Below are positions 6,251 through 40,720 of a DNA stretch of 64,000 nt, piece after piece. The translations under genes and the position numbers were made by a program. The notes beneath the pieces are model-generated. The model had not been told where the DNA came from, searched no databases, and worked only from the letters and a program-made list of their open reading frames with translations. Position 1 is the first letter of the stretch. The number at the start of each line of letters is the position of its first letter. Location: the sequence record LC788708.1; one strand, given 5' to 3'. The DNA comes from Escherichia coli phage AZ21.

Positions 6251-6508
6251 ATGGGACTCTTTAGAAAGAAAGTTTATTTAACAGAAGAGCAAGAACACAA
6301 ACTTCTTACTCTATCAGAATACTATCATTTACCATATGATTATTTTGTAGATAGAGCAATAGAGGAATTCTTAGATAGAGAATTAGAGGCTATAAAACCT
6401 AAGCCTCCTGAGCCGTCTTTAGCATCAAAGGGTCACCAAAGAGAATCCCCAAGAGTTCCGCCAATGCCCCCAATTCCACCAAAAACTAGAGTTGTAACAG
6501 AGTTGTAA
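6251..6508 (+). CDS. hypothetical protein, proline-rich C-terminus
   Basis: RBS GGAGG then ATG. Confidence 0.4.
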   Translation: MGLFRKKVYLTEEQEHKLLTLSEYYHLPYDYFVDRAIEEFLDRELEAIKPKPPEPSLASKGHQRESPRVPPMPPIPPKTRVVTEL

Positions 6509-6524
6509 TAGAAGGTAAAAAATA

Positions 6525-7004
6525 ATGTCGGTTTTCCACATTTACACAGATGGTGCTTGTAAGTCTAACCCAGGTCCAGGTGCTTGGGGTTTTATTGTCT
6601 ATAATGATAACGACGATCGTTTAGGTTCTAAATCTGGTTATAATCCTAAAACTACAAATAATGAGATGGAACTCACAGCTATTGTAGAAGCTCTACGTTG
6701 GTCTGTTAAAAAAGATAATAGACCAATTGCTATCTATACTGACTCTGCTTATTGCAAAAATGGCATGGAAAGCTGGATGTTTTCTTGGCAAAGGAAAGGC
6801 TGGAAGAAAGCAGATGGTGAAGTTCCTCTTAATCTAGAACTTTGGCAGGAAGCATTTAAATTAACACAGCAGTATATCAACTTTCATAATACTAATCCTA
6901 CCTTTATTAAGGTTAAAGGACATTCTGGTATTAGTGGTAATGAAGCTGTAGACGCCTTATGTAATACAGTTATTACTGAAGCTGAAATGGCTGAGATGTT
7001 ATAA
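6525..7004 (+). CDS. rnh: ribonuclease H
   Basis: RNase HI motifs: IYTDGAC, EMELTAI, YTDSAY, GHSGISGNEAVDAL. Confidence 0.8.
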   Translation: MSVFHIYTDGACKSNPGPGAWGFIVYNDNDDRLGSKSGYNPKTTNNEMELTAIVEALRWSVKKDNRPIAIYTDSAYCKNGMESWMFSWQRKGWKKADGEVPLNLELWQEAFKLTQQYINFHNTNPTFIKVKGHSGISGNEAVDALCNTVITEAEMAEML

Positions 7005-7021
7005 ATAAATTAAAAATTTTC

Positions 7022-7050
7022 TTGCTTAAAGCCCTCTAATTTAGTATAAT
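7022..7050 (+). promoter_or_regulatory. sigma70 promoter (T5 early type)
   Basis: TTGCTT-17-TATAAT. Confidence 0.6.
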
Positions 7051-7077
7051 ATTCGTATTGAAAGTGAGGAGGGATTT

Positions 7078-7356
7078 ATGCGAATTTATAACTCAAATTC
7101 ATTAGGATTTAAACCATTGAGAAAACGTGCACAATCACCTCGTCAAATAAGAAAGGCTAATATTGGTGAGCCAGAGACACGCCTTCCACCTCCTCCAGAA
7201 CAACGTTTAGTTTATCTGGACGAAGAATTAGCTGAACGCGAAAGAAAAGCTCAAGAAGAGATTGAGCGTAAGAAAATGTGTACTGCTCCAGCGTATAATA
7301 AAGGGGCGTATCAATACGTCTCAGATGCCGAACAAGCTAAGATGGTTGGTAGATAA
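7078..7356 (+). CDS. hypothetical protein
   Basis: RBS GAGGAGGG then ATG. Confidence 0.4.
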   Translation: MRIYNSNSLGFKPLRKRAQSPRQIRKANIGEPETRLPPPPEQRLVYLDEELAERERKAQEEIERKKMCTAPAYNKGAYQYVSDAEQAKMVGR

Positions 7357-7372
7357 TTTTTAAAAAATTCAT

Positions 7373-7401
7373 TTGCTAAACGCTTCAAATTCTCGTATAA
7401 T
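7373..7401 (+). promoter_or_regulatory. sigma70 promoter (T5 early type)
   Basis: TTGCTA-17-TATAAT then CATAAATTGAT leader. Confidence 0.65.
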
Positions 7402-7439
7402 ATACTTCATAAATTGATAAACAAAAAGGAAAACAAATA

Positions 7440-7955
7440 ATGGCTAAGCAGAAAAACGCAAAAACTCAAGCAGCTCCGGCAGTTAAAACTTTCCCGAAGA
7501 CTGAGGCTAATCGCAAAGCTCGGCTGGAACGTCACCTGCGTAAGCATCCTACAGATGCTCAGGCTGCGCAAGCACTGAATAATCCGGCTCCGATTCGTCA
7601 GAAGCCTAAAGCTAAAAATGCCACCCGTAAATCCTACAAAATGGTTATGTATGTAGAAAATTACGGCCACAAATCTGTCCCAGTTTCCCTGAGCTTTAAC
7701 GCTGGGGCTGAATTGTTCTCTCGTAATGGTATGTCTATGAAAGACTATGAGAAGGCAGTTAACCAGAAGCGTAAACCAACAGCAGATGTATTGCGCGATA
7801 CTCGTGGACAGTTTGGTTCTGTTAAGCCAAGTATCTTTGGCGTAGAGTATAGTAAAGATAATGTTCGTGCTCTGTGTTACGGTGTAGGTATTAAGTTCAC
7901 GGGTGATTCTGCTCGTAAATCTGCTAAACCAGCTCGCAAGCGTAAAGCGAAGTAA
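7440..7955 (+). CDS. hypothetical basic (K/R-rich) protein
   Basis: 171 aa, lysine/arginine-rich termini. Confidence 0.45.
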   Translation: MAKQKNAKTQAAPAVKTFPKTEANRKARLERHLRKHPTDAQAAQALNNPAPIRQKPKAKNATRKSYKMVMYVENYGHKSVPVSLSFNAGAELFSRNGMSMKDYEKAVNQKRKPTADVLRDTRGQFGSVKPSIFGVEYSKDNVRALCYGVGIKFTGDSARKSAKPARKRKAK

Positions 7956-8019
7956 TAGATAAATAGGGGCGAAAGCCCCTACAATCGACTAATTCTCTAA
8001 CTAATCAAGGATATTTTTT

Positions 8020-8235
8020 ATGTTCTCTAAGAAACCACGTTCTGTTACTGAAATCGTTGCTTCCTTTACCACTATCACTGATGAGCTTCAAGCTCGTATT
8101 GAGGCTGATCAAAAAATCGCTGCTGATATTCAGAAACAGCAGGAAGAACTCGCTTTAAAGTTGGCTGAAACCAACAAGAGTGAAAAATCTGCCCAAACTA
8201 TTATGGAAAATATCCTTAAACTGCTGGGCAAGTGA
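8020..8235 (+). CDS. hypothetical protein
   Basis: RBS AAGGA then ATG. Confidence 0.35.
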   Translation: MFSKKPRSVTEIVASFTTITDELQARIEADQKIAADIQKQQEELALKLAETNKSEKSAQTIMENILKLLGK

Positions 8236-8279
8236 TTTAAATCAGGGGGGGGCGAAAGCCCCTCTTATTTGGAGAAACT

Positions 8280-8516
8280 ATGCGTAATTTTGTAGCAAAG
8301 AATGATTTTAACCGTGCTAGCACTCATAAGTCCGCTAGAGATTATACACGACTTTCTAGTCATGAGGTAATGGATACCTGTTATGAAGAGCTGGAAGGTA
8401 GCTGGAATGAGTGTCCCGACTTCTCTATGGAAGAGAACTGGGATGTCAGTGAGGATATGCTTCCTGGTTTTAAAGACCCCAAGAAGTGGGAGTCTATTAA
8501 AGAGACAGCTCTTTAA
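8280..8516 (+). CDS. hypothetical acidic protein
   Basis: RBS GGAGAAA then ATG. Confidence 0.35.
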   Translation: MRNFVAKNDFNRASTHKSARDYTRLSSHEVMDTCYEELEGSWNECPDFSMEENWDVSEDMLPGFKDPKKWESIKETAL

Positions 8517-8544
8517 TAGTTTTCTACACAATAAAGGATAAGTT

Positions 8545-9246
8545 ATGAAAGTAAAACCATTTGGTATGCTAGATATTGAATCTCTAGGAACTCCAGGAGA
8601 TTGTGGTACTACCCATATCGCAATGCCTTCATTCGCTTTTGTGGCTATGCATGGAATTGATAAAGACCCTGATCTAGTATTTGTTACTTTAGATGTACAA
8701 GATCAACTTAATTCTGGTGCCAAAGTTACAGCATCTACTCTAGCATTCTGGATGGATCAGGCTAAACATAGCCCGTCTGCTATCCACATTATGGAAGCTA
8801 TGAATGAGCGTAATCCAAAACTGGTTGCCTTCCAAAATGGTAAACATCATTGCACTAATAAACTTGGCTCTAACCATGCTGCCTTCTCTATGGCTCAAAA
8901 TATTATGGAGTTGGCTCTAGGCGAAAATGCTTTGTATTATGGCAATGGCCCAGAGTTTGATATGACTATCTACTCTGCAAACACTTTCCATGCTGGAACC
9001 AATGAAGAAATAGTTCCGTGGAAATTCTGGAACTTGGGTAATGTTAGATCTCTTCGTAATCTCTGGATGCAAACTGGCTATAGTTATAAAGCTCTAGAAA
9101 CCGAAGGTATTAGCTGGGCAATAGCTAAAATGGAGAAGATGGACACCATTCGTTATGGGATCTATCCGGTTAAGCACGACCCAGCATTCGATGCCCTAGT
9201 TGAGAGCTATTGTGTTGCAGCTATGATCGAAAAAATGAAAATTTGA
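8545..9246 (+). CDS. putative DEDDh-type 3'-5' exonuclease
   Basis: Exo I-like LDIESLG near N-terminus and Exo III-like YPVKHDPAFDA near C-terminus. Confidence 0.5.
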   Translation: MKVKPFGMLDIESLGTPGDCGTTHIAMPSFAFVAMHGIDKDPDLVFVTLDVQDQLNSGAKVTASTLAFWMDQAKHSPSAIHIMEAMNERNPKLVAFQNGKHHCTNKLGSNHAAFSMAQNIMELALGENALYYGNGPEFDMTIYSANTFHAGTNEEIVPWKFWNLGNVRSLRNLWMQTGYSYKALETEGISWAIAKMEKMDTIRYGIYPVKHDPAFDALVESYCVAAMIEKMKI

Positions 9247-32884: not shown

Positions 32885-33774
32885 TGGGATTTTATAGTAA
32901 TAGAAAACCAAAAGGTGTAACTGGTAAATTCGCAGTTGAAGAAAGACCTTTTCCACCGGTCGATGTAGAGAAACTACGTGAACTTCTAGAAATGCTAGAA
33001 GGTTGCCATGAACGTTGTTATTCTGAACTCTCTTTAAATGAGAAACGTGTTGTTGAGATGTTCTGTATTCGTTCAGCTAGAACAGCTAAAGGTACTTCTC
33101 CAAAAGATGAAGTAAAAGAGTACAGAGTTCTAGTGATGCATGCTTGGGCACAACGTTTTGCAGTTCATTCGCTTCAGGAATGGTTTAATCTTCCAGCCTA
33201 TAAAGATTTTCATGTTTACGAAGATGAGGTTATGAATTATAATGAGTTGTATGGTTTGTCCTTCAAAAAGACAGGCTCACCGATGCATGATGCACTCAAT
33301 TCATTCCCTGATCATTACCTTCCAGTTCGTGAATATAGAGATCGTGAAGGAAATAAACCCTGCTTCACTATTTGGAATAAGTCTAAGACGATATCTGATC
33401 TAGATAATTATTGGTTTCGCACAAAAGAAGGATTCCTAGGAACAGAACCTTTACCTAAGGATCTCAAACCTATCCTTCCGCCTGCGAAACCTAAACATGA
33501 AGTAACGATTGCTATTAATAGAATAATTCTAGGAGCAGATGATCTTACTAAACAAATCGCCGCAGTTATCGCAGTTCTGTTTGACGGTACAAATTCTTCT
33601 GCACGTTATGAGAAGCTAACGGATAACAAATTGCAGATACCTAACGAGTTGTATGAGAGTTCGTGCAAGATCTATGATAACTTTAGTAAAGTAGATTACC
33701 CCGTGAGATCCATTAAAGAACTCATGGAGTATGCGGAGATGGGGATGAAAGGAAATCTCATGTTCGATGAATAA
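32884..33774 (+). CDS. hypothetical protein
   Basis: 296 aa; last early-type gene before repeat region. Confidence 0.45.
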   Translation: MGFYSNRKPKGVTGKFAVEERPFPPVDVEKLRELLEMLEGCHERCYSELSLNEKRVVEMFCIRSARTAKGTSPKDEVKEYRVLVMHAWAQRFAVHSLQEWFNLPAYKDFHVYEDEVMNYNELYGLSFKKTGSPMHDALNSFPDHYLPVREYRDREGNKPCFTIWNKSKTISDLDNYWFRTKEGFLGTEPLPKDLKPILPPAKPKHEVTIAINRIILGADDLTKQIAAVIAVLFDGTNSSARYEKLTDNKLQIPNELYESSCKIYDNFSKVDYPVRSIKELMEYAEMGMKGNLMFDE

Positions 33775-33781
33775 ACTCTAC

Positions 33782-33810
33782 TTGACGTTATGATTTCTGC
33801 ATGTTATAAT
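33782..33810 (+). promoter_or_regulatory. sigma70 promoter pointing into the gene-free repeat region
   Basis: TTGACG-17-TATAAT; no convincing ORF downstream. Confidence 0.5.
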
Positions 33811-34138
33811 AACTCTATGAAATAACATAGAATAAAGAGATCCACCCGGATACGGATGGTGGATGGGAAACTTCTATTTCCCCCGTAGCTTGTCGGAGGG
33901 CTAGGGAAATCTTAAGAAGTTTTGTACCATCTCACGCAATTCGTATCCCAGGGGTGGAGCATCTCTTCCAATCTTTGGGGATCTTATACTTAAATTAAAG
34001 GTAAAACTTTTGGTCACATAATTTACATTCAAGATGATACACTGGTTGCCGCCATTCTTCCTAGGATGGCACAACACTTTCTTCTAGACTCCTAAGTTTC
34101 TAGGAATACTAACTCTAGAGTTTACACTAAACTTTGAA

Positions 34139-34876
34139 TCGGATTCGCACATGCTCTAGGGCAGTTTTTCATCTACTATAAATATCCTAGGCCGGTTTTC
34201 CTATACAGGGCGGTTATGGGGAGGGCGGTTATTTCTAGACAATAAAATTTACTCTTGTCAGTCCAGAAATTACTGTCGGATTTGCACATTGTGTTTCTAG
34301 AAATTTATGGTCGGATTTGCACAATTGCCTAAGTTTTTAGGAACATATAATCTCCTGAAAATGGCAGCATTATTTCGGGCCGAAGGCCCATGATTGCCTG
34401 AGTTTTTTTAGAGACACAGAAATTTTCACTTGTCAAGCTATTTTGCCCCATTTTGCTAATAAAATTTTACTTTATCTCCCCTAATCTCAAATTAACCCAA
34501 ATCTTCTCAACTCTTCTCCAAAATCCCCGCAAATCAGGTGCTCCGCACCAAACATGCGCCCCTCCCGTAGTTCCCCCAAGTTTCTCTCGATCTCTCAACT
34601 TCTCCCCAAACTCATACAATCACACACCCTCCAATCGAAGTCACAAAAATCTTGTCGGATTCGCACAAATAAACCCATGTCGGATTTGCACATATTCTAG
34701 TTAATTCCACAGGATTGATGCGCAGCATCGGATTGCTGGAGTTTTTGGGAGAATTCATTGTCGGATTCGCACACTATAAAAATTTTTCGGGTCGGATTTG
34801 CACACTACCAAAAATTGTCGGATTCGCACATACACGCCCACGCGTAATCCATGGGGGCAAATGTCGGATTTGCACA
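34139..34876 (+). repeat. array of nine direct copies of GTCGGATT(T/C)GCACA
   Basis: Copies at about 34139, 34275, 34310, 34654, 34679, 34760, 34791, 34817, 34863, irregular spacing. Confidence 0.85.
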
Positions 34877-34881
34877 AAAGC

Positions 34882-34899
34882 GCAGGGCAATTGCCCTGC
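34882..34899. repeat. perfect 18 bp palindrome GCAGGGCAATTGCCCTGC
   Basis: Read directly. Confidence 0.85.
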
Positions 34900-34904
34900 T
34901 TGCC

Positions 34905-35098
34905 TGAATGCGAATGATAATGAGAATCATTTGCATTTAAAAAGCGGAATGAGAATGATAATAATTCGCATTTAAGAATGGAAGTGAGAATTATTCAGGA
35001 AGTGAAACGATTCTCATTTAAAAAGTGAAACGATTCTCATTTAGAAAGTGAAACGCGAATGATAATGATTCGTATTTAAGAATGGAAGTGAGAAACAC
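34905..35098. repeat. GAATGATAATGA / AGTGAAACGATTCTCATTTA / CGCATTTAAGAATGGAAGTGAGAA repeat block
   Basis: AGTGAAACGATTCTCATTTA twice in tandem (35001, 35025); C(G/A)(C/T)ATTTAAGAATGGAAGTGAGAA twice (34968, 35071). Confidence 0.8.
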
Positions 35099-35109
35099 TA
35101 TTATTTAAG

Positions 35110-35118
35110 TTATCCACA
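35110..35118 (+). promoter_or_regulatory. DnaA-box consensus TTATCCACA
   Basis: Exact 9-mer; TTATCAACA variants at about 35122, 35171, 35183. Confidence 0.6.
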
Positions 35119-35199
35119 GACTTATCAACAGCACGATTTGACTTGACAGAATCCTAGCCATTTTGAGGCGTTATCAACAGACTTATCAACAGCTTATCC

Positions 35200-35219
35200 T
35201 ACTGTATAAATATACAGTA
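35200..35219. promoter_or_regulatory. LexA-box-like palindrome TACTGTATAAATATACAGTA
   Basis: CTGT-N8-ACAG with AT-rich core, close to the E. coli SOS-box consensus. Confidence 0.55.
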
Positions 35220-35413
35220 TTCCTATGCAGTGAATAATTCTAATATACAGCTAAAACGCTCTCAAACGCATTCTAACGCGTTTAATTTTGGTGGGGATAC
35301 TAAAACAAGGGCAAAATTGGAGGAGGCTTGAAAATTAGTTAGCTCGCTAATGATCACACACGGCGACACGTAACACCCTAACCATTAGCAGGCTAACCAT
35401 CGCGGGCGTGGTC

Positions 35414-35434
35414 AAATGAGAATGATTCTCATTT
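35414..35434. repeat. 21 bp palindrome AAATGAGAATGATTCTCATTT
   Basis: Same GAGAATGAT core as the upstream repeat block. Confidence 0.8.
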
Positions 35435-35585
35435 GTGGATTGGGGGCGCTTCCTGATAGTTGCGCCCCGTGATTATTATAGTAGGGGGCAACCGTTACGC
35501 TTTGCCCACTCCCGCCACTCATCTTGGTGCCTAGACTTGCGACGGCGTACTAAAAACCGCTTGTACCAGTGATTAAACCATCGTT

Positions 35586-35789
35586 TCATAAATCCTCCTC
35601 CGGTAGTCGATGCGTGATCTTTTCCTCCTCCCCATAGGAATCCACCAAATACTGATAATAACCATCGTGATCATAAATCACTTTATCATATTCCCCACGC
35701 TCGACCGCTTGCCGATTTTCCAACGTATCAGGCACAAAGAAAGTATCAACGGTAACAGTAGTTTTAGTTACAACAATTTTATCACTCAT
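35586..35789 (-). CDS. hypothetical pre-early protein
   Basis: 67 aa acidic; last gene of minus-strand block. Confidence 0.4.
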   Translation of the reverse strand: MSDKIVVTKTTVTVDTFFVPDTLENRQAVERGEYDKVIYDHDGYYQYLVDSYGEEEKITHRLPEEDL

Positions 35790-35915
35790 AATGCCATCGC
35801 CCCTAGAATGAGAATGATTATCAATATCATTGTGAAGCCATTACCAAATCGTAAACGCTGGGAATGTTTCCCAGCGGTATTATTAGACTTATGGCTTTGT
35901 GTTTTTCGCCACCAG

Positions 35916-36116
35916 CTATTCACGGTAGACGCTCCATCCGTCTAGCTTCCATTCTTCCCCCTTGCGAATATTGAAAAACCAATCATTAAAATTGTAACCA
36001 TCTTCTGACATGATCACGCCGTTTTCTTTCATGTACAAAAATTCATCACTAGTAAAATATTGATTACTAACTTTAAAACCTTGTTTCATTTTTTCTAGTG
36101 CTTCATCTTTAGTCAT
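35916..36116 (-). CDS. hypothetical pre-early protein
   Basis: 66 aa; start overlaps upstream stop. Confidence 0.4.
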   Translation of the reverse strand: MTKDEALEKMKQGFKVSNQYFTSDEFLYMKENGVIMSEDGYNFNDWFFNIRKGEEWKLDGWSVYRE

Positions 36117-36457
36117 TGCGCCACCTTTCGAAACGCTGTTTCAATACTATCCGCAGTGGATTGAATATATGCGCCTTTGAGTATCAGCCGCTCGGTGCAT
36201 ATCTTGCGAAAAATATTAATAAAATCGTCCTCATTTTCTGCGATTAATGCCTCACCCATAACCTGAACGTCGCAAGATGCAAAGGTCAAAAATTGAAACG
36301 CTAGTTCACGGGCAACGACCGCATTGATTTTATAATGCGCCTTGCCTTCATAGATATTAATAACGCCCTTATAAGCTGGCGAAAGCTGATTTAAGTAGTT
36401 TGCTAATAATGCCGGACGGCAATTAGCAACAAAACGATTGCCCTCATAAATAACCAT
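36113..36457 (-). CDS. hypothetical pre-early protein
   Basis: 114 aa. Confidence 0.4.
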   Translation of the reverse strand: MVIYEGNRFVANCRPALLANYLNQLSPAYKGVINIYEGKAHYKINAVVARELAFQFLTFASCDVQVMGEALIAENEDDFINIFRKICTERLILKGAYIQSTADSIETAFRKVAQ

Positions 36458-36580
36458 TTGATAGTCTCCCGATTAGATAGCCAGATAATAACATAAAGAT
36501 CCCCAATAAAAGAGGATCATTCTTAAATAAGGTGGCGGTAAAACCGCCAACCATTGCAAGGAGAATAACAATAATGCTTT

Positions 36581-36793
36581 TCATAGTACCCCACGAAACG
36601 CAGCGTAAAAGGTGGCAAAGTGTTTAACTGTTTCAGCAATCACGTTGCCGCGCTTATCAAATTTCTTTTCTGTAACACGAAAGGCATTTTTATTACGTGC
36701 TACATATTCGATTTTACAATCTTCCCGCTCGAACGTGTTAACATCCACCAGCTTAAAGCCTTTCGAACGTGCAAGAGAAACGTTGCGGATCAT
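36581..36793 (-). CDS. hypothetical pre-early basic protein
   Basis: 70 aa. Confidence 0.35.
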   Translation of the reverse strand: MIRNVSLARSKGFKLVDVNTFEREDCKIEYVARNKNAFRVTEKKFDKRGNVIAETVKHFATFYAAFRGVL

Positions 36794-36795
36794 TT

Positions 36796-36978
36796 TTATT
36801 CCCCTTTACTAGTCATGCAGCCCAGCAGATAAGAAAATACAGCGATGCCAGCACCAATAGTAACCATTGGTTTTATATTTACTAAACCGCAATAGGAATC
36901 CTGAATACCATAAGCGGTGGCGAAAAGAGTCAAAATAGCGCCCAAGATACCCGCTAAAATAGCTCGAAAAATAACCAT
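36796..36978 (-). CDS. hypothetical small membrane protein
   Basis: 60 aa, two hydrophobic helices. Confidence 0.35.
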   Translation of the reverse strand: MVIFRAILAGILGAILTLFATAYGIQDSYCGLVNIKPMVTIGAGIAVFSYLLGCMTSKGE

Positions 36979-37027
36979 TTGTAATACTCCTCTAGTTAGT
37001 GGGGCGAAAGTAACGCCCCGTTATTAA

Positions 37028-37258
37028 TTACATTAAAATAATTTTTGCCGCTTGTTTTTTGGTACAGTGTTCCGCTTTCAGGGTGTCCAGCAAAAAGCCC
37101 GCCGTTTGCTGATCGATTTTATCGGCATTATATAGTTCTTGGATGGTGTTATAAGTTTTAGCAATGCCGTATTCTTGTACCATTTCTTGAATAATCCAGC
37201 GATTTGATACCCAGCCTTTACCAGTGAAAAGAGCGTCAGAAGAAGAGTAAGCAACCAT
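37028..37258 (-). CDS. hypothetical pre-early protein
   Basis: RBS GGAGG then ATG on minus strand; track ORF trimmed. Confidence 0.4.
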   Translation of the reverse strand: MVAYSSSDALFTGKGWVSNRWIIQEMVQEYGIAKTYNTIQELYNADKIDQQTAGFLLDTLKAEHCTKKQAAKIILM

Positions 37259-37364
37259 TTTAAGCCTCCAAATTTTTGGGAAAATTTTCAACCGTCCTCA
37301 AACGGTGTAAAGGCATTATAACAAAAAAGGCCGCCATAAAAGGCGACCTTTACAAAACTTTACA

Positions 37365-37859
37365 TTAAACTACTTGTAAGGATTCAATATTGAAACATCG
37401 TTTCAGTTCGTCATGCAAAACGGCATATTCATCCCATCGGGTACTATCAGGAATATAAACAAGCTGTTTTAATCGGTTTGCATATATTACCGCTTTGTTA
37501 TCAATTATCTCGACGCCACCATATTTAATAATTAATTTCATGACGGAATTAATAGGATCGCCGCCGTTTACATATGCGCCGGATTTACTTAATTGATAAT
37601 GATAAAGGCTTGCATATACGTTTTCATTTTCATACCATTCGCCAGTCTCTTCGTCTTCATAGCCATCGCTACCAAAACGAGAAGCATTATCAACAGCCAT
37701 TTCATGAGCAAAAGCGTCCAGATCCGTACCAGCAGGAACAAAATATTCCTCGGTATTCCCTTCCCCGCAATAGCCAGTATGACAATCGACTAAAATGATC
37801 ATATCATGTTTAGCCTTGCTCACTTCCCCTAGCGAGAAGCCGTATTTTTCTTCTAACAT
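37365..37859 (-). CDS. hypothetical pre-early acidic protein
   Basis: RBS AGGAGA then ATG on minus strand; 164 aa. Confidence 0.45.
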   Translation of the reverse strand: MLEEKYGFSLGEVSKAKHDMIILVDCHTGYCGEGNTEEYFVPAGTDLDAFAHEMAVDNASRFGSDGYEDEETGEWYENENVYASLYHYQLSKSGAYVNGGDPINSVMKLIIKYGGVEIIDNKAVIYANRLKQLVYIPDSTRWDEYAVLHDELKRCFNIESLQVV

Positions 37860-37923
37860 AATTAGTCTCCTATTAATTAACAAGGAAATAGTAAAGCGGG
37901 GAAATAATCCCCGCTAGATATTA

Positions 37924-38157
37924 TTACTCGTTTTCGGTGTTAGTGGTAAAAGTAGAGATATCGATACCTTTTACCATTTCATCGATCATCTCAGCGATGT
38001 TAAAACTTTGCACCATTTCTAACATTGCCGCTTCCATAGCCGCCCCTGCTACCGCTTTCGCTTTCTGATTAGTCGGGGCGTACTGGTCAACCGCTACACT
38101 CAGCAGGTTAGCGATCACTACACGACCAATCGGCGTATCAATATAGCCTTTGATCAT
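37924..38157 (-). CDS. hypothetical pre-early protein
   Basis: 77 aa; start overlaps upstream gene end by 20 nt. Confidence 0.4.
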   Translation of the reverse strand: MIKGYIDTPIGRVVIANLLSVAVDQYAPTNQKAKAVAGAAMEAAMLEMVQSFNIAEMIDEMVKGIDISTFTTNTENE

Positions 38158-38929
38158 AAACGGTGCTTTTTTTAGCCGCTACTTTCGTGATTTGAGTTAG
38201 TGCAATTTTACCAGCTTCCAGTTTTGCAGCGTTTACAACAGCGGATTTATTAGCGGCAACGATATTAGCGATCTTGGTCATGGTATTTTTTCCTTTGTTT
38301 TCAGTAGTTTGAGTATTAACGCTTTGAGTGTTAGAGCTTACAACCTGTTTTTCAATATTGTCAACTGGTTTTAGTGTAAATCCAGCATTTGCAACGTTTG
38401 ATTCATTCCCATACTCTAAATAATCACTAGGGATCAACATGTTGCCACTAGCGCGTTCAAAACATAACACGCCAGTTGTAGAAATTACATTACTATCAGC
38501 ACTTTTGTAATTAGCTGATAGTTCACGCCAAATGCTAGTTAATAACGATCCGACACTATCAGTCCTGATATTACTTACTTTTGTTGCTGTTACTTGCTCT
38601 TTTTCTTGCACGTTATATAATCGCGCAATGTAACCACTATTAGATTCACTATAACCAACAATGATAAAATCAATATCTCTTCCACGTTGATTGCGGAAAA
38701 TGTGATAATCACGGTTGAAAATTACTAGCGCCCTTTTCTGGTCTAGTAATTGTGTGAAATCTTCAACTGAATAATGAGTACCCTCATCGTCTAAAATTCT
38801 ATCATGAATCTTTTCGATAATAGTAGCGGTATGCTGTACGCTTGCCGCGCTACTACCCTCTAACAGATTGCGCAAACTGCCTTTAATAATAGTGGCGTTT
38901 GCTGGTACTGCAATTCTTACAGTAGACAT
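38138..38929 (-). CDS. hypothetical pre-early protein (first gene of minus-strand block)
   Basis: 263 aa; RBS GGGAGA then ATG on minus strand. Confidence 0.5.
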   Translation of the reverse strand: MSTVRIAVPANATIIKGSLRNLLEGSSAASVQHTATIIEKIHDRILDDEGTHYSVEDFTQLLDQKRALVIFNRDYHIFRNQRGRDIDFIIVGYSESNSGYIARLYNVQEKEQVTATKVSNIRTDSVGSLLTSIWRELSANYKSADSNVISTTGVLCFERASGNMLIPSDYLEYGNESNVANAGFTLKPVDNIEKQVVSSNTQSVNTQTTENKGKNTMTKIANIVAANKSAVVNAAKLEAGKIALTQITKVAAKKSTVYDQRLY

Positions 38930-39195
38930 TTTATTTTGTCTCCCTCGTTAATCGGTGAGTGAATGATAAGGGTAATTTTCTAGCATAGGCAAATATTATT
39001 TTACTTTTTTATTTTCCTTGCCTAGCGTCTAATTTTATGCTAACCGCGCAGCGGTGCAATAAAGAGCAAACCACGGCGAAGCCACCAGCCCGACGCATTG
39101 AGGCTTTACTTTAATATTACCTTACAGCGTTTAGCTCGTTAGAATGCGTTTTGGGCCACTTAAAATTGATTGCAGTTGTTAACACTACCTTTCTA

Positions 39196-39215
39196 CCCTG
39201 TATATTTATACAGTG
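39196..39215. promoter_or_regulatory. LexA-box-like palindrome CTGTATATTTATACAG
   Basis: Exact reverse complement of the 35202-35217 core; lies upstream of the minus-strand block. Confidence 0.55.
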
Positions 39216-39224
39216 GAATAACCT

Positions 39225-39233
39225 GTGGATAAG
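39225..39233 (-). promoter_or_regulatory. DnaA-box consensus (TGTGGATAA on + strand)
   Basis: Exact reverse complement of TTATCCACA; second copy at about 39298-39306. Confidence 0.6.
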
Positions 39234-39554
39234 TCTGTGCAAAAGTCCTTATATCACCGCCTATCGTGTCAAGTTATTTTGTGCTGTGGAAAACATTGTG
39301 GATAACTTAAATGATAGTGCTTCTCACTTAGGCTAATGATTTCTTATAGTTATTATTTCTCATTAATTTATAAGTATATTATATATTATCAAATAGTTAG
39401 TTGGCTAATGAGATTTTCCGTGATTAATAGTCTGCTAATAATTCAGGTCGTTACAATCCACCAGCATGATTATCATTCTAGCAATTATTAGTCTGCTATC
39501 TTTCCGATACATACTAACAAATAAAAGTCAATTAATTTATTTCATAAAATAAGT

Positions 39555-39591
39555 AGTTATCCACTGGAAAATAAAAGTCAAGTGGATAACT
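39555..39591. repeat. perfect 11 bp inverted repeat AGTTATCCACT-N15-AGTGGATAACT
   Basis: Each arm contains a DnaA-box variant TTATCCACT. Confidence 0.8.
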
Positions 39592-39978
39592 AGGAAAATT
39601 TCATTTTTGCTTTTGGGGATAAGTTATCAACAAGGCTAGAATGCGCCTAAAACGCTCCAGAACGCGATGAAGTTTTTAGCCACCCCATCATAAGGGGATA
39701 GGCCGTTTATCGCTGCCACGAGCTTTTTAGATTTTGTCAAGTAGGGGAAAGCAAATATAAATGAAAAAATTACTTGCCTATTTGCTTTATTTTGTGGTAT
39801 TCGCGCCCGTTTCTTTTAATTTTAGGCCGTCGCCGGACGTGGTGCGGTGAATTTTGTCTTTACGTTTCTTTACAAAAATAAGGTTGCGCCATTTTCGGGA
39901 ATCCCCTATTATTTATCACGTAGGGCGGCAATGACGAACTACACGGCGGGAAGTTTACCGCCACGCTCTTTAAAAATT

Positions 39979-40002
39979 GGGTACATCTTAAAGCCTATCG
40001 GC
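39979..40002. repeat. left arm of 24 bp inverted repeat (GGGTACATCTTAAAGCCTATCGGC)
   Basis: 23/24 match to the reverse complement of 40247-40270. Confidence 0.85.
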
Positions 40003-40034
40003 GGTAAACTTATTTATTATAAGGAATCGACGAT

Positions 40035-40247
40035 ATGAAACAAACTTTATTGATCACTGGCAAGCCTATTAAGGCACTAGATAGCAAAACAAAAAATTTG
40101 TTGACAGTAGCGCAAAGATCGGTAAAATACCGATTCACGCAGTACAAGAAAGACCGCCAGCAAGGTTTAGAAATGATCTGGCGAAACATTATGATTGACT
40201 TGAAAGAAAATCATAAAAAACTGCAAAAAAATTATTTGACAACCTAG
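40035..40247 (+). CDS. hypothetical basic pre-early protein bracketed by the 24 bp inverted repeat
   Basis: 70 aa; stop codon TAG lies in the right repeat arm. Confidence 0.4.
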   Translation: MKQTLLITGKPIKALDSKTKNLLTVAQRSVKYRFTQYKKDRQQGLEMIWRNIMIDLKENHKKLQKNYLTT

Positions 40248-40270
40248 CCGATAGGTTTTAAGATGTACCC
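40247..40270. repeat. right arm of 24 bp inverted repeat (GCCGATAGGTTTTAAGATGTACCC)
   Basis: See left arm. Confidence 0.85.
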
Positions 40271-40391
40271 AGTTCGATAAGAGCGATAACTTGATAAAAT
40301 TTGACGGTCGGTGCTTACCATAATGCGCCCCGCCCCCTAACGGGATATAGCGGCCTACGTGGAGTTCTTTAAATTGATTATAGCGGCGAGA

Positions 40392-40445
40392 GGATTGTTA
40401 CTTATTACCTGCTAGTATTTTCTAGTAGGTAATAAGTAACAATCC
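40392..40445 (+). other. long hairpin, 24 bp stem (23/24) with 6 nt loop
   Basis: GGATTGTTACTTATTACCTGCTAG-TATTTT-CTAGTAGGTAATAAGTAACAATCC, just upstream of the next RBS. Confidence 0.8.
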
Positions 40446-40468
40446 ATCAAATAACTGGAGTTTATATT

Positions 40469-40720
40469 ATGCAAAACGTTATTACCGCGCCTAAAATTGG
40501 TCAATCCGTCTTTATTCCTTTCGTTACTAAAACGGATGAATTAACCGGAAAGGCCGAACGTATTAAAGGTGCGGCGCTTATGCCGTTCGATACAATCGAC
40601 GCGGTATATGCTGAAAATGAACGCAGTAACAACGGCAAGCCCGTTTTTAGCGTTCGCGTTAAATCCGGCGATGTTGTAAAGGTTGTTCAACGCAACGAAA
40701 AATGGGAAGCTGTGTTGTAA
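40469..40720 (+). CDS. hypothetical pre-early protein
   Basis: RBS CTGGAG then ATG; 83 aa. Confidence 0.45.
   Translation: MQNVITAPKIGQSVFIPFVTKTDELTGKAERIKGAALMPFDTIDAVYAENERSNNGKPVFSVRVKSGDVVKVVQRNEKWEAVL

Follow-up and report, generated by a model that had tools for sequence, protein, structure and literature searches.

In a 64,000-nucleotide (nt) stretch of Escherichia coli phage AZ21 (LC788708.1), referred to below as the window, positions 35586 to 38929 on the minus strand very probably represent the right-hand pre-early, or first-step-transfer, block of a T5-like phage. Over positions 35000 to 39600, the window matches at 100% identity the sequence of Escherichia coli phage AZ23 (LC788707.1), a member of the Demerecviridae that is filed under Tequintavirus, and the block can be described as the AZ23 version of T5 genes 011 to 017. 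As a genomic feature it adds little, since the T5 block is already covered by mapping, by toxicity screens of single genes, and by deletion, and one of its members has been biochemically characterized. This kind of locus is thus already known and largely ordinary. The residual novelty lies in two small genes that are missing from T5, encoding proteins of 164 and 66 amino acids (aa).

Orthologues of T5.011 to T5.015 and of T5.017 are present in T5 order, as found with blastp and tblastn against T5. T5.016 is absent from the window, as in most relatives. The T5 counterpart of the block (6495-9157 of AY543070) is part of a region annotated as "left terminal repeat; comprises first-step-transfer DNA" and lies just upstream of the injection stop signal, and the homologous DNA in phage MM-1 falls within the annotated left terminal repeat. 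The original prediction, which was made from the sequence alone, had called these genes pre-early. This is correct because the homologous DNA is terminal repeat in MM-1 and first-step-transfer DNA in T5: the block sits in the homologue of the T5 left terminal repeat, flanked by two 131-bp inverted repeats with DnaA boxes, and the injection stop signal lies downstream of it.

The likeness to T5 011-017 (NC_005859/AY543070) extends to the position between these inverted repeats, the promoter, the terminator, and the gene order, with a protein identity of 82-100% for 012, 013, 014, 015, 017, and the C-terminal part of 011. The two loci differ in four respects. In the window, the 164-aa gene is inserted between 011 and the terminator of 011, the 66-aa gene replaces T5.016, the N-terminal domain of 011 shares only about 35% identity with its T5 counterpart, and 011 is frameshifted. 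More widely, 456 related T5-like records were found for the window sequence, and the stretch from 35000 to 39600 aligns to hundreds of T5-like Salmonella and Escherichia phages with a coverage of 77-93% and an identity of approximately 86-93%.

The block is flanked by the following repeats:

35086..35217, unstranded, inverted-repeat arm adjoining the injection stop signal (IRD'spacerIRC' in T5), containing DnaA boxes and a CTGT-N8-ACAG palindrome
39198..39329, unstranded, partner arm of the inverted repeat (IRCspacerIRD), likewise containing DnaA boxes and a CTGT-N8-ACAG palindrome

The two arms are 83% complementary, and consensus DnaA boxes cluster within them. T5-like phages are known to carry 131-bp IRD'spacerIRC' and IRCspacerIRD repeats with paired DnaA boxes, at a spacing of 1851 to 4258 bp (Davison 2020). 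This variable spacing fits a variable accessory cassette. The predicted bracketing of the block by LexA/DnaA repeat modules is therefore based on real repeats. Each arm contains a perfect LexA-box-like palindrome (35202-35217, CTGTATAAATATACAG; 39198-39213, CTGTATATTTATACAG). The 64 kb of the window hold only three such matches, these two included, where 0.84 are expected. Both palindromes are kept in T5 and the remaining loci examined, and they coincide with "palindrome D" of AY587007. The text of Davison 2020 on these repeats makes no mention of LexA.

The nine minus-strand open reading frames (ORFs) on which the original prediction was built were all recovered at the coordinates given, and exactly these nine are annotated in the AZ23 record, each as a hypothetical protein. 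Together with an additional 46-aa ORF, they make up ten ORFs that each match a PHROG family (E values of 1e-28 to 1e-99). The ratio of nonsynonymous to synonymous substitution rates (dN/dS) in pairwise comparisons with relatives equals 0.01-0.3 for all ORFs with ungapped homologues, a condition that excludes the N-terminal part of 011. In addition, the sign of the GC skew is reversed over 34-40 kb, as minus-strand genes predict. Two ORFs of 172 and 87 aa begin at TTG in a mechanical list, and ATG starts backed by ribosome-binding sites shorten them to 164 and 76 aa. Shine-Dalgarno sequences accompany every ORF except the 77-aa one, so the good ribosome-binding sites reported earlier stand with a single exception. 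It is exceedingly improbable that some or all of these ORFs are chance open frames in non-coding DNA. All of them are short, and library searches gave a function only for a 70-aa gene whose label is misplaced, as discussed below. However, the PHROG matches, dN/dS values far below 1, the Shine-Dalgarno sequences, hundreds of homologues, and T5 orthologues with experimental phenotypes effectively refute this explanation. The sole ORF whose coding status stays doubtful is an extra 45-aa ORF starting at GTG (35786-35923), with a dN/dS of 0.34 in a single comparison.

A strong intrinsic terminator at 37351-37326 divides the block into two predicted transcription units. The first contains the following elements:

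38963..38992, minus strand, pre-early sigma-70 promoter of unit 1 (TTGCCT-18-TATCAT with an A-rich upstream element), found by promoter scan
38138..38929, minus strand, 011 homologue, N-terminal 263 codons (DUF7566; phrog_4263), with a strong Shine-Dalgarno sequence, GAGGGAG
38167..38173, minus strand, A7 homopolymer run breaking the 011 frame, read directly from the sequence and from the alignment
37924..38157, minus strand, 011 homologue, C-terminal 77 codons, 96% identical to T5.011 residues 260-336, no Shine-Dalgarno sequence
37895..37915, unstranded, short GC hairpin with a weak T tract, at the upstream junction of the 164-aa gene insertion (junction comparison with T5)
37365..37859, minus strand, 164-aa acidic protein with an isoelectric point (pI) of 4.5 (phrog_6741), no T5 counterpart
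37326..37351, minus strand, strong intrinsic terminator closing unit 1 (10-bp stem with 6 GC pairs, then a T run)

The second contains the following elements:

37284..37311, minus strand, candidate promoter of unit 2, a weak consensus match (9/12) that corresponds to T5P5 of AY587007
37028..37258, minus strand, T5.012 homologue, 76 aa, 91% identity (phrog_5145)
36796..36978, minus strand, T5.013 homologue, 60 aa, small membrane protein, 93% identity
36581..36793, minus strand, T5.014 homologue, 70 aa, basic (pI 10.0), 100% identity (phrog_4227)
36444..36584, minus strand, 46-aa ORF with one hydrophobic segment (phrog_19184, E value of 2e-28), dN/dS of 0.11-0.31
36113..36457, minus strand, T5.015 homologue, 114 aa, predicted Ung-dependent endonuclease (nickase) acting at apurinic/apyrimidinic (AP) sites, 92% identity, dN/dS of 0.02-0.05
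35916..36116, minus strand, 66-aa acidic protein in the T5.016 slot, no T5 match, with a remotely Tad2/DUF2829-like predicted fold
35586..35789, minus strand, T5.017 homologue, 67 aa, acidic (pI 4.4), 82% identity (phrog_6973), dN/dS of 0.15-0.22

Unit 1 would comprise 011 and the 164-aa gene, driven by the conserved TTGCCT-18-TATCAT promoter. This promoter is almost the same as the promoter region that AY543070 places before T5.011, and the unit 1 terminator is homologous to the one annotated after T5.011 (7534-7559 in AY543070). Unit 2 would carry 012-013-014-46aa-015-66aa-017 behind the T5P5-like region, whose sequence is almost identical to that upstream of T5.012, where AY587007 annotates the putative pre-early promoter T5P5. 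The block had been described as nine tightly packed, translationally coupled genes. This description fails on three counts, as the 263-aa and 77-aa ORFs form one gene, a terminator divides the block, and the 46-aa gene was missed. The intergenic gaps, in gene order, measure -20 (the frameshift), 64, 106, 49, 2, -4, -14, -4, and 126 nt, and tight packing is limited to the run 013-014-46aa-015-66aa (+2, -4, -14, and -4 nt).

The clearest functional assignment concerns the 114-aa ORF, which is 92% identical to T5.015 over 114/114 residues, with nine substitutions. In T5, gp015 binds the uracil-DNA glycosylase Ung and cleaves the abasic sites that Ung makes, which leads to replication and division arrest (PMC8201957). 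An inactive T5.015 mutant carries K85A K94A K111A, and this substitution abolishes toxicity (PMC8201957). Lysines 30, 39, 43, 85, 94, and 111 occur in both T5.015 and the 114-aa ORF, so that K85, K94, and K111 are all kept. The protein thus resembles the characterized T5.015 (Mahata et al. 2021, PMC8201957) in overall identity and in these three lysines, and differs from it by the nine substitutions. By homology, we infer that the 114-aa protein does the same as T5.015, namely Ung binding and AP-site nicking.

Public annotations place the nickase elsewhere. In RefSeq NC_005859, the label is attached to T5.014 (70 aa), the 70-aa family phrog_4227 bears the same endonuclease text, and MM-1 and Stokescottia label their 70-aa gene accordingly. 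The UniRef cluster of the 114-aa protein, on the other hand, is named DNA-(apurinic or apyrimidinic site) endonuclease. It is the 114-aa gene that encodes the nickase, because K85A K94A K111A fits T5.015 and the 70-aa protein has no residue 85; the RefSeq and PHROG labels are off by one. An accession-order hint (EFG4537524/EFG4537521) that pointed to the 70-aa gene as the nickase was overruled by the name of this mutant. The confusion likely stems from AY587007, where a split of 011 makes the 70-aa gene "ORF015". The error has a practical side, as pharokka carries the misplaced label into new phage genomes.

The block had also been reported to hold no recognizable domains. At the domain level this is nearly right: Pfam gives only DUF7566 and a subthreshold Tad2-like match, NCBIfam returned only matches far below its cutoffs for the ten proteins, PADLOC found nothing for any of them, and sequence searches against the PDB gave nothing for the 164-aa, 114-aa, 70-aa, and 263-aa proteins. 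Rfam detected no RNA family in 33700-40500.

Two of the ORFs, those of 263 and 77 aa, form a single gene, the T5.011 homologue, broken at an A7 run, because they correspond to consecutive parts of T5.011 and of DUF7566. The 263-aa ORF matches T5.011 residues 1-257 (48% identity) and positions 1-257 of the 336 in DUF7566 (E value of 1e-84; 285.4 bits against a cutoff of 27). The 77-aa ORF matches residues 260-336 and model positions 260-336 of 336 (146.1 bits against the same cutoff of 27). Together, both fragments span the whole 336-position model of DUF7566 (PF24450), here in two frames. The single polypeptide of approximately 336 aa that DUF7566 describes is accordingly not encountered here, being split at the A7 run.

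The most likely cause of this split is a sequencing error in the homopolymer; failing that, it would be a null mutation specific to the strain. An error is favored because the junction is read through in one piece in 58/60 phage records (~97%; an even sample down the ranking), because phage vB_Eco_mar004NP2 has been deposited both ways, and because A7 is absent from IMG/VR. The latter phage was deposited twice, with 011 intact once and in two pieces once (NC_048205.1/OR896837.1); errors of sequencing or assembly therefore arise readily in the A-run region. A search of IMG/VR gave 0 matches for A7 and 18 stretches for A6, one of which is the closest metagenomic relative of the AZ23 allele of 011. 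Programmed frameshifting at the A7 run was rated unlikely in view of these IMG/VR counts and the 58/60 records that read through.

It is possible, but less probable, that the split is real, reflecting either a mutation that inactivates a gene both toxic and dispensable or a slippery run at which occasional slippage would give full-length protein. The run length does vary among deposited genomes, from A5 in MM-1 to A6 in T5 and Stokescottia, where the gene is in frame, and A7 here. The Sanger-derived T5 sequence AY587007 also has a split 011, at a different A run, and an ATG lies 9 nt past the A7 run. Furthermore, wild-type 011 is too toxic to clone yet dispensable, so that its loss would be tolerated. 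However, in addition to the read-through records, the double deposit of mar004NP2, and the A6 of the closest metagenomic relative, the 77-aa ORF lacks a Shine-Dalgarno sequence, and this C-terminal part is under strong purifying selection in relatives (dN/dS of 0.01-0.15).

Regardless of the split, conservation along gp011 is uneven. Residues 1-190 (38360-38929) are 31-35% identical to T5 (35%), MM-1, Stokescottia, and most IMG/VR relatives; with a single metagenomic contig (L008), their identity reaches 86%. Identity to relatives is 80-92% for residues 191-255 and 80-96% for the C-terminal ~150 residues. These alignments point to gp011 as a two-module protein, in which an allelic, hypervariable N-terminal domain precedes a conserved C-terminal domain. 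The hypervariable domain is the most arms-race-like feature of the block. The two-module design suggests where to seek the target of a protein whose function has so far eluded prediction.

Experimental work on T5 covers most of the block. Mahata et al. (2021) cloned 13 uncharacterized T5 genes, including 011-017, and found 008, 011, and 015 to be toxic (PMC8201957). Annor et al. (2026) cloned all 17 pre-early genes and reported 011, 013, and 015 as the toxic ones from this block, each producing a distinct cellular phenotype, with nucleoid disorganization for 011 and lysis with loss of membrane integrity for 013 (bioRxiv 10.64898/2026.04.02.716235). Wild-type 011 could not be cloned in that study (bioRxiv 10.64898/2026.04.02.716235). 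T5.012 and T5.017 were not toxic in either screen (PMC8201957; bioRxiv 10.64898/2026.04.02.716235). The single-gene toxicity assays that had been suggested for these ORFs are thus already published for the T5 orthologues, with a positive outcome for 011, 013, and 015 and a negative one for 012 and 017. A T5 mutant keeping only A1, A2, hdi, and 009, and hence lacking hegG-017, is viable and forms smaller plaques; its authors remark that 011 "resists functional predictions" and consider that 011-017 could be of importance in defence-carrying hosts (bioRxiv 10.64898/2026.04.02.716235). Measured against the refuting condition set with the original prediction, an absent deletion phenotype, the viability of this mutant weakens the proposed role in host takeover or anti-defence but does not refute it, as defence-carrying hosts were outside the study.

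On this basis, a mechanism can be proposed. After adsorption, only the terminal ~8% of the genome would enter the cell, with the block forming the rightward-transcribed half of this first-step-transfer DNA. Host sigma-70 RNA polymerase would transcribe the two units from the conserved pre-early promoters, and the products would act as accessory host-takeover proteins, not as essential functions. Among them, gp015 would bind the host uracil-DNA glycosylase and nick the resulting abasic sites, thereby arresting host replication and division; gp013, a small membrane protein, would harm the envelope when overproduced; and gp011 would disturb the nucleoid. Gene content between the flanking DnaA-box inverted repeats varies among relatives. 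Toxicity, Ung-dependent nicking, and dispensability have been shown experimentally on the T5 orthologues (PMC8201957; bioRxiv 10.64898/2026.04.02.716235). That the AZ23 proteins act like these orthologues, and that the transcription units are laid out as described, is inferred from sequence.

Several points weigh against this account. The expression, toxicity, and deletion data come from T5 orthologues and not from AZ23, and the 164-aa and 66-aa genes fall outside the set of orthologues tested. Dispensability was established in the laboratory E. coli strain F only, in a mutant that also lacks left-arm genes. The N-terminal domain of 011, at ~35% identity to that of T5, may have a different target, and the gene is interrupted here. 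Finally, the unit 2 promoter matches the consensus weakly, at 9/12 positions.

Small, densely packed, individually dispensable early genes are also found in the host-takeover sets of other virulent coliphages, such as the class I genes of T7 and the immediate-early small ORFs of T4, which the T5-like pre-early set resembles in these respects. The T7 and T4 early sets are not known to be related in sequence to the T5-like one. Unlike in T7 and T4, two-step DNA transfer keeps the T5-like early set physically apart from the remaining genome.

The original prediction regarded the block as a source of new host-takeover or anti-defence factors, a reading that is upheld in part but out of date. For most of the genes the novelty is lost, as their T5 orthologues have been screened; the 164-aa and 66-aa genes are not covered by the T5 experiments and keep their candidacy. 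It is unlikely that at least one block gene is a dedicated anti-defence factor, such as an anti-restriction activity expressed from the first-step-transfer DNA. Tequintaviruses are insensitive to restriction of types I, II, and III except at sites located within the first-step-transfer DNA, through a protein that has not yet been identified (PMC10644984). A factor of this kind would also fit the variable gene content of the block, the combination of a hypervariable N-terminal domain and a conserved C terminus in 011, a pattern of arms-race proteins, and the resemblance of the 66-aa protein to Tad2, and the T5 deletion study left out defence-carrying hosts, as its authors note. Epseptimavirus, the genus of BASEL phage Bas28 (IrmaTschudi), is nevertheless restriction sensitive (PMC10644984). 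Bas28 carries 011, the 164-aa gene, 012, 014, 015, and the 66-aa gene in the same order, with a gene set that differs within the same frame. Because restriction-sensitive Bas28 carries them, the shared genes are unlikely to be a Tequintavirus-specific anti-restriction factor and are poor candidates for it. Moreover, much of the protection could come from A1-driven destruction of host DNA, and the Pfam, PHROG, NCBIfam, PADLOC, and PDB comparisons turned up nothing that resembles a known anti-restriction protein in sequence or fold. Accessory host takeover in the manner of the T5 orthologues remains the preferred role of the block.

The 66-aa and 164-aa proteins are the only parts of the block outside the T5 experiments. 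They are easy to test, as Bas28 has a 66-aa gene that is 100% identical and in the same position after 015, and T5 has none. For the 66-aa protein, the comparisons converge on Tad2, a sponge for the Thoeris signal glycocyclic ADP-ribose (gcADPR) and other immune signals (SPO1 gp34.65). The match to the Pfam Tad2-like family PF11195 has an E value of 0.005 and 17.8 bits, below the cutoff of 25, and the best PDB sequence match is SPO1 Tad2 (8sme; E value of 0.02). An AlphaFold2 model has a predicted local distance difference test (pLDDT) score of 89.6, and its top Foldseek match is again SPO1 Tad2 (8smf; probability of 0.95, template modeling [TM] score of 0.61, E value of 0.12), the next match having a TM score of <0.3 and all others scores of <0.4. 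An exhaustive search with hidden Markov models yielded a family of 578 cluster representatives of ~65 aa. Among 93 scanned members, eight reach PF11195 at an E value of <1e-3, and none matches another Pfam family. In a profile-profile comparison (hhalign) with a Tad2 alignment built from SPO1 gp34.65 homologues, the family matches Tad2 with 90% probability (E value of 1.6e-6), with only the N-terminal 37 columns aligned.

The likeness to Tad2 is a predicted N-terminal helix followed by a small beta sheet. On the other side, the protein has 66 aa against 89 aa for Tad2 and lacks the GWNGK and SQxDxLAxDW motifs as well as the dimerizing loop; its model shows four predicted strands against five, and the helix of the beta2-beta3 loop is missing. 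In the profile alignment, Tad2 W25 faces F21 and N26 faces a gap. The invariant Tad2 residues R22, G24-K28 (GWNGK), and S76, Q77, D79, L81, A82, D84, and W85 (SQxDxLAxDW) have no evident counterpart in the consensus of the 66-aa family, and neither do the ligand contacts N26 and D79. The set of W25, N26, W73, D79, and the two motifs, which combines invariant family residues with ligand contacts, is not found, and aromatic positions may be the only Tad2 residues with a correspondence. With a broad family profile, Tad2 is no longer found in the PDB, and the protein is therefore not filed as a Tad2 member. In addition, a survey of Tad2 published in 2025 does not list its sequence among the homologues given in its supplementary tables. 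The 66-aa protein is best described as a predicted remote relative of the Tad2/DUF2829 fold, outside the Tad2 family proper.

A sponge function for this protein is possible but unsupported. It appears improbable that it works as a Tad2-type sponge for gcADPR, histidine-ADP-ribose (His-ADPR), cyclic nucleotide monophosphates (cNMP), or a cyclic oligonucleotide early in infection. Tad2 is the top match in three independent comparisons (Pfam, PDB sequence, and Foldseek), the profile-profile match and the eight members that reach PF11195 point the same way, and the predicted order of secondary structure elements (alpha1, then beta strands with two short helices) follows Tad2, whose homologues bind varied signals. 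On the other hand, the Pfam score stays below its cutoff, the broad profile loses Tad2, and the profile alignment is confined to its N-terminal columns. The invariant residues and ligand contacts lack an evident counterpart, the extended beta2-beta3 loop with helix alpha2 that forms the Tad2 dimer is missing, and the survey supplements do not list the sequence. Close copies (at least 80% identity) occur in ~70 phage records. Distant copies (<60% identity) occur in 372 records, those listed being mostly larger (~140-170 kb) Klebsiella, Escherichia, or other enterobacterial phages.

The 164-aa gene sits between the 011 stop codon and the unit 1 terminator when compared to T5. The protein was found in 346 phage records, of which those listed are T5-like, apart from some with doubtful host labels, and several of the listed records place the gene in annotated terminal repeats. 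The family shares the conserved motifs TGYCGE, NGGDP, and RLKQLVYIP. The AlphaFold2 model is confident (pLDDT of 88, predicted TM score of 0.83), and the predicted fold has no match among the solved structures in the PDB. In some homologues (P0097, P0098, and P0100), but not in AZ23, an insert of approximately 20 residues with a CxxC...CxxC pattern, possibly a zinc ribbon, is present at the acidic loop of the protein.

The odds of either the 164-aa or the 66-aa protein being a new counter-defence protein are modest. Quite improbable is the more specific case in which both serve pre-early counter-defence, the 66-aa protein as a minimal, divergent Tad2-type sponge and the 164-aa protein as a new-fold protein with a new target. 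If true, the 66-aa protein would stand for a family of ~580 sequence clusters, present in T5-like phages and in further large virulent phages of enterobacteria, and would sequester a nucleotide immune signal in the first minutes after the DNA enters.

Among the remaining small genes, the 60-aa protein is hydrophobic along most of its length, and T5.013 is annotated with two transmembrane domains. The 46-aa ORF overlaps its neighbors by 4 and 14 nt. It is annotated in Stokescottia and MM-1 and unannotated in the AZ23 and T5 records. As a conserved, probable membrane gene, it belongs to the block.

The AZ23 record (104,075 bp) contains the terminal-repeat region once, at 68.9-73.5 kb. Because this region is single copy in the middle of the record, the record is a permuted assembly in which the ~10-kb terminal repeat has collapsed. 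Comparison with MM-1 places the true genome end near window position 44.8 kb. Some database records carry unexpected host labels: the Campylobacter phage C13 and C8 records (MG065692 and MG065660), as well as records counted under Listeria, contain T5-like pre-early genes with 88% protein identity. These host labels look doubtful, or the sequences look contaminated.

Beside the block, a 22-nt direct repeat occurs in nine copies in non-coding DNA (34130-34876). It ends in GTCGGATT(T/C)GCACA, with one diverged copy ending in ATCGGATTCGCACA. These copies seem to be the counterparts of the nine DRD repeats in the injection-stop region of T5. Within unit 2, the gap of 126 nt before the T5.017 homologue is unusually long, and this gene is flanked by two copies (35415-35433 and 35807-35825) of a AATGAGAATGAT-type repeat that is otherwise found in the injection-stop repeat region.

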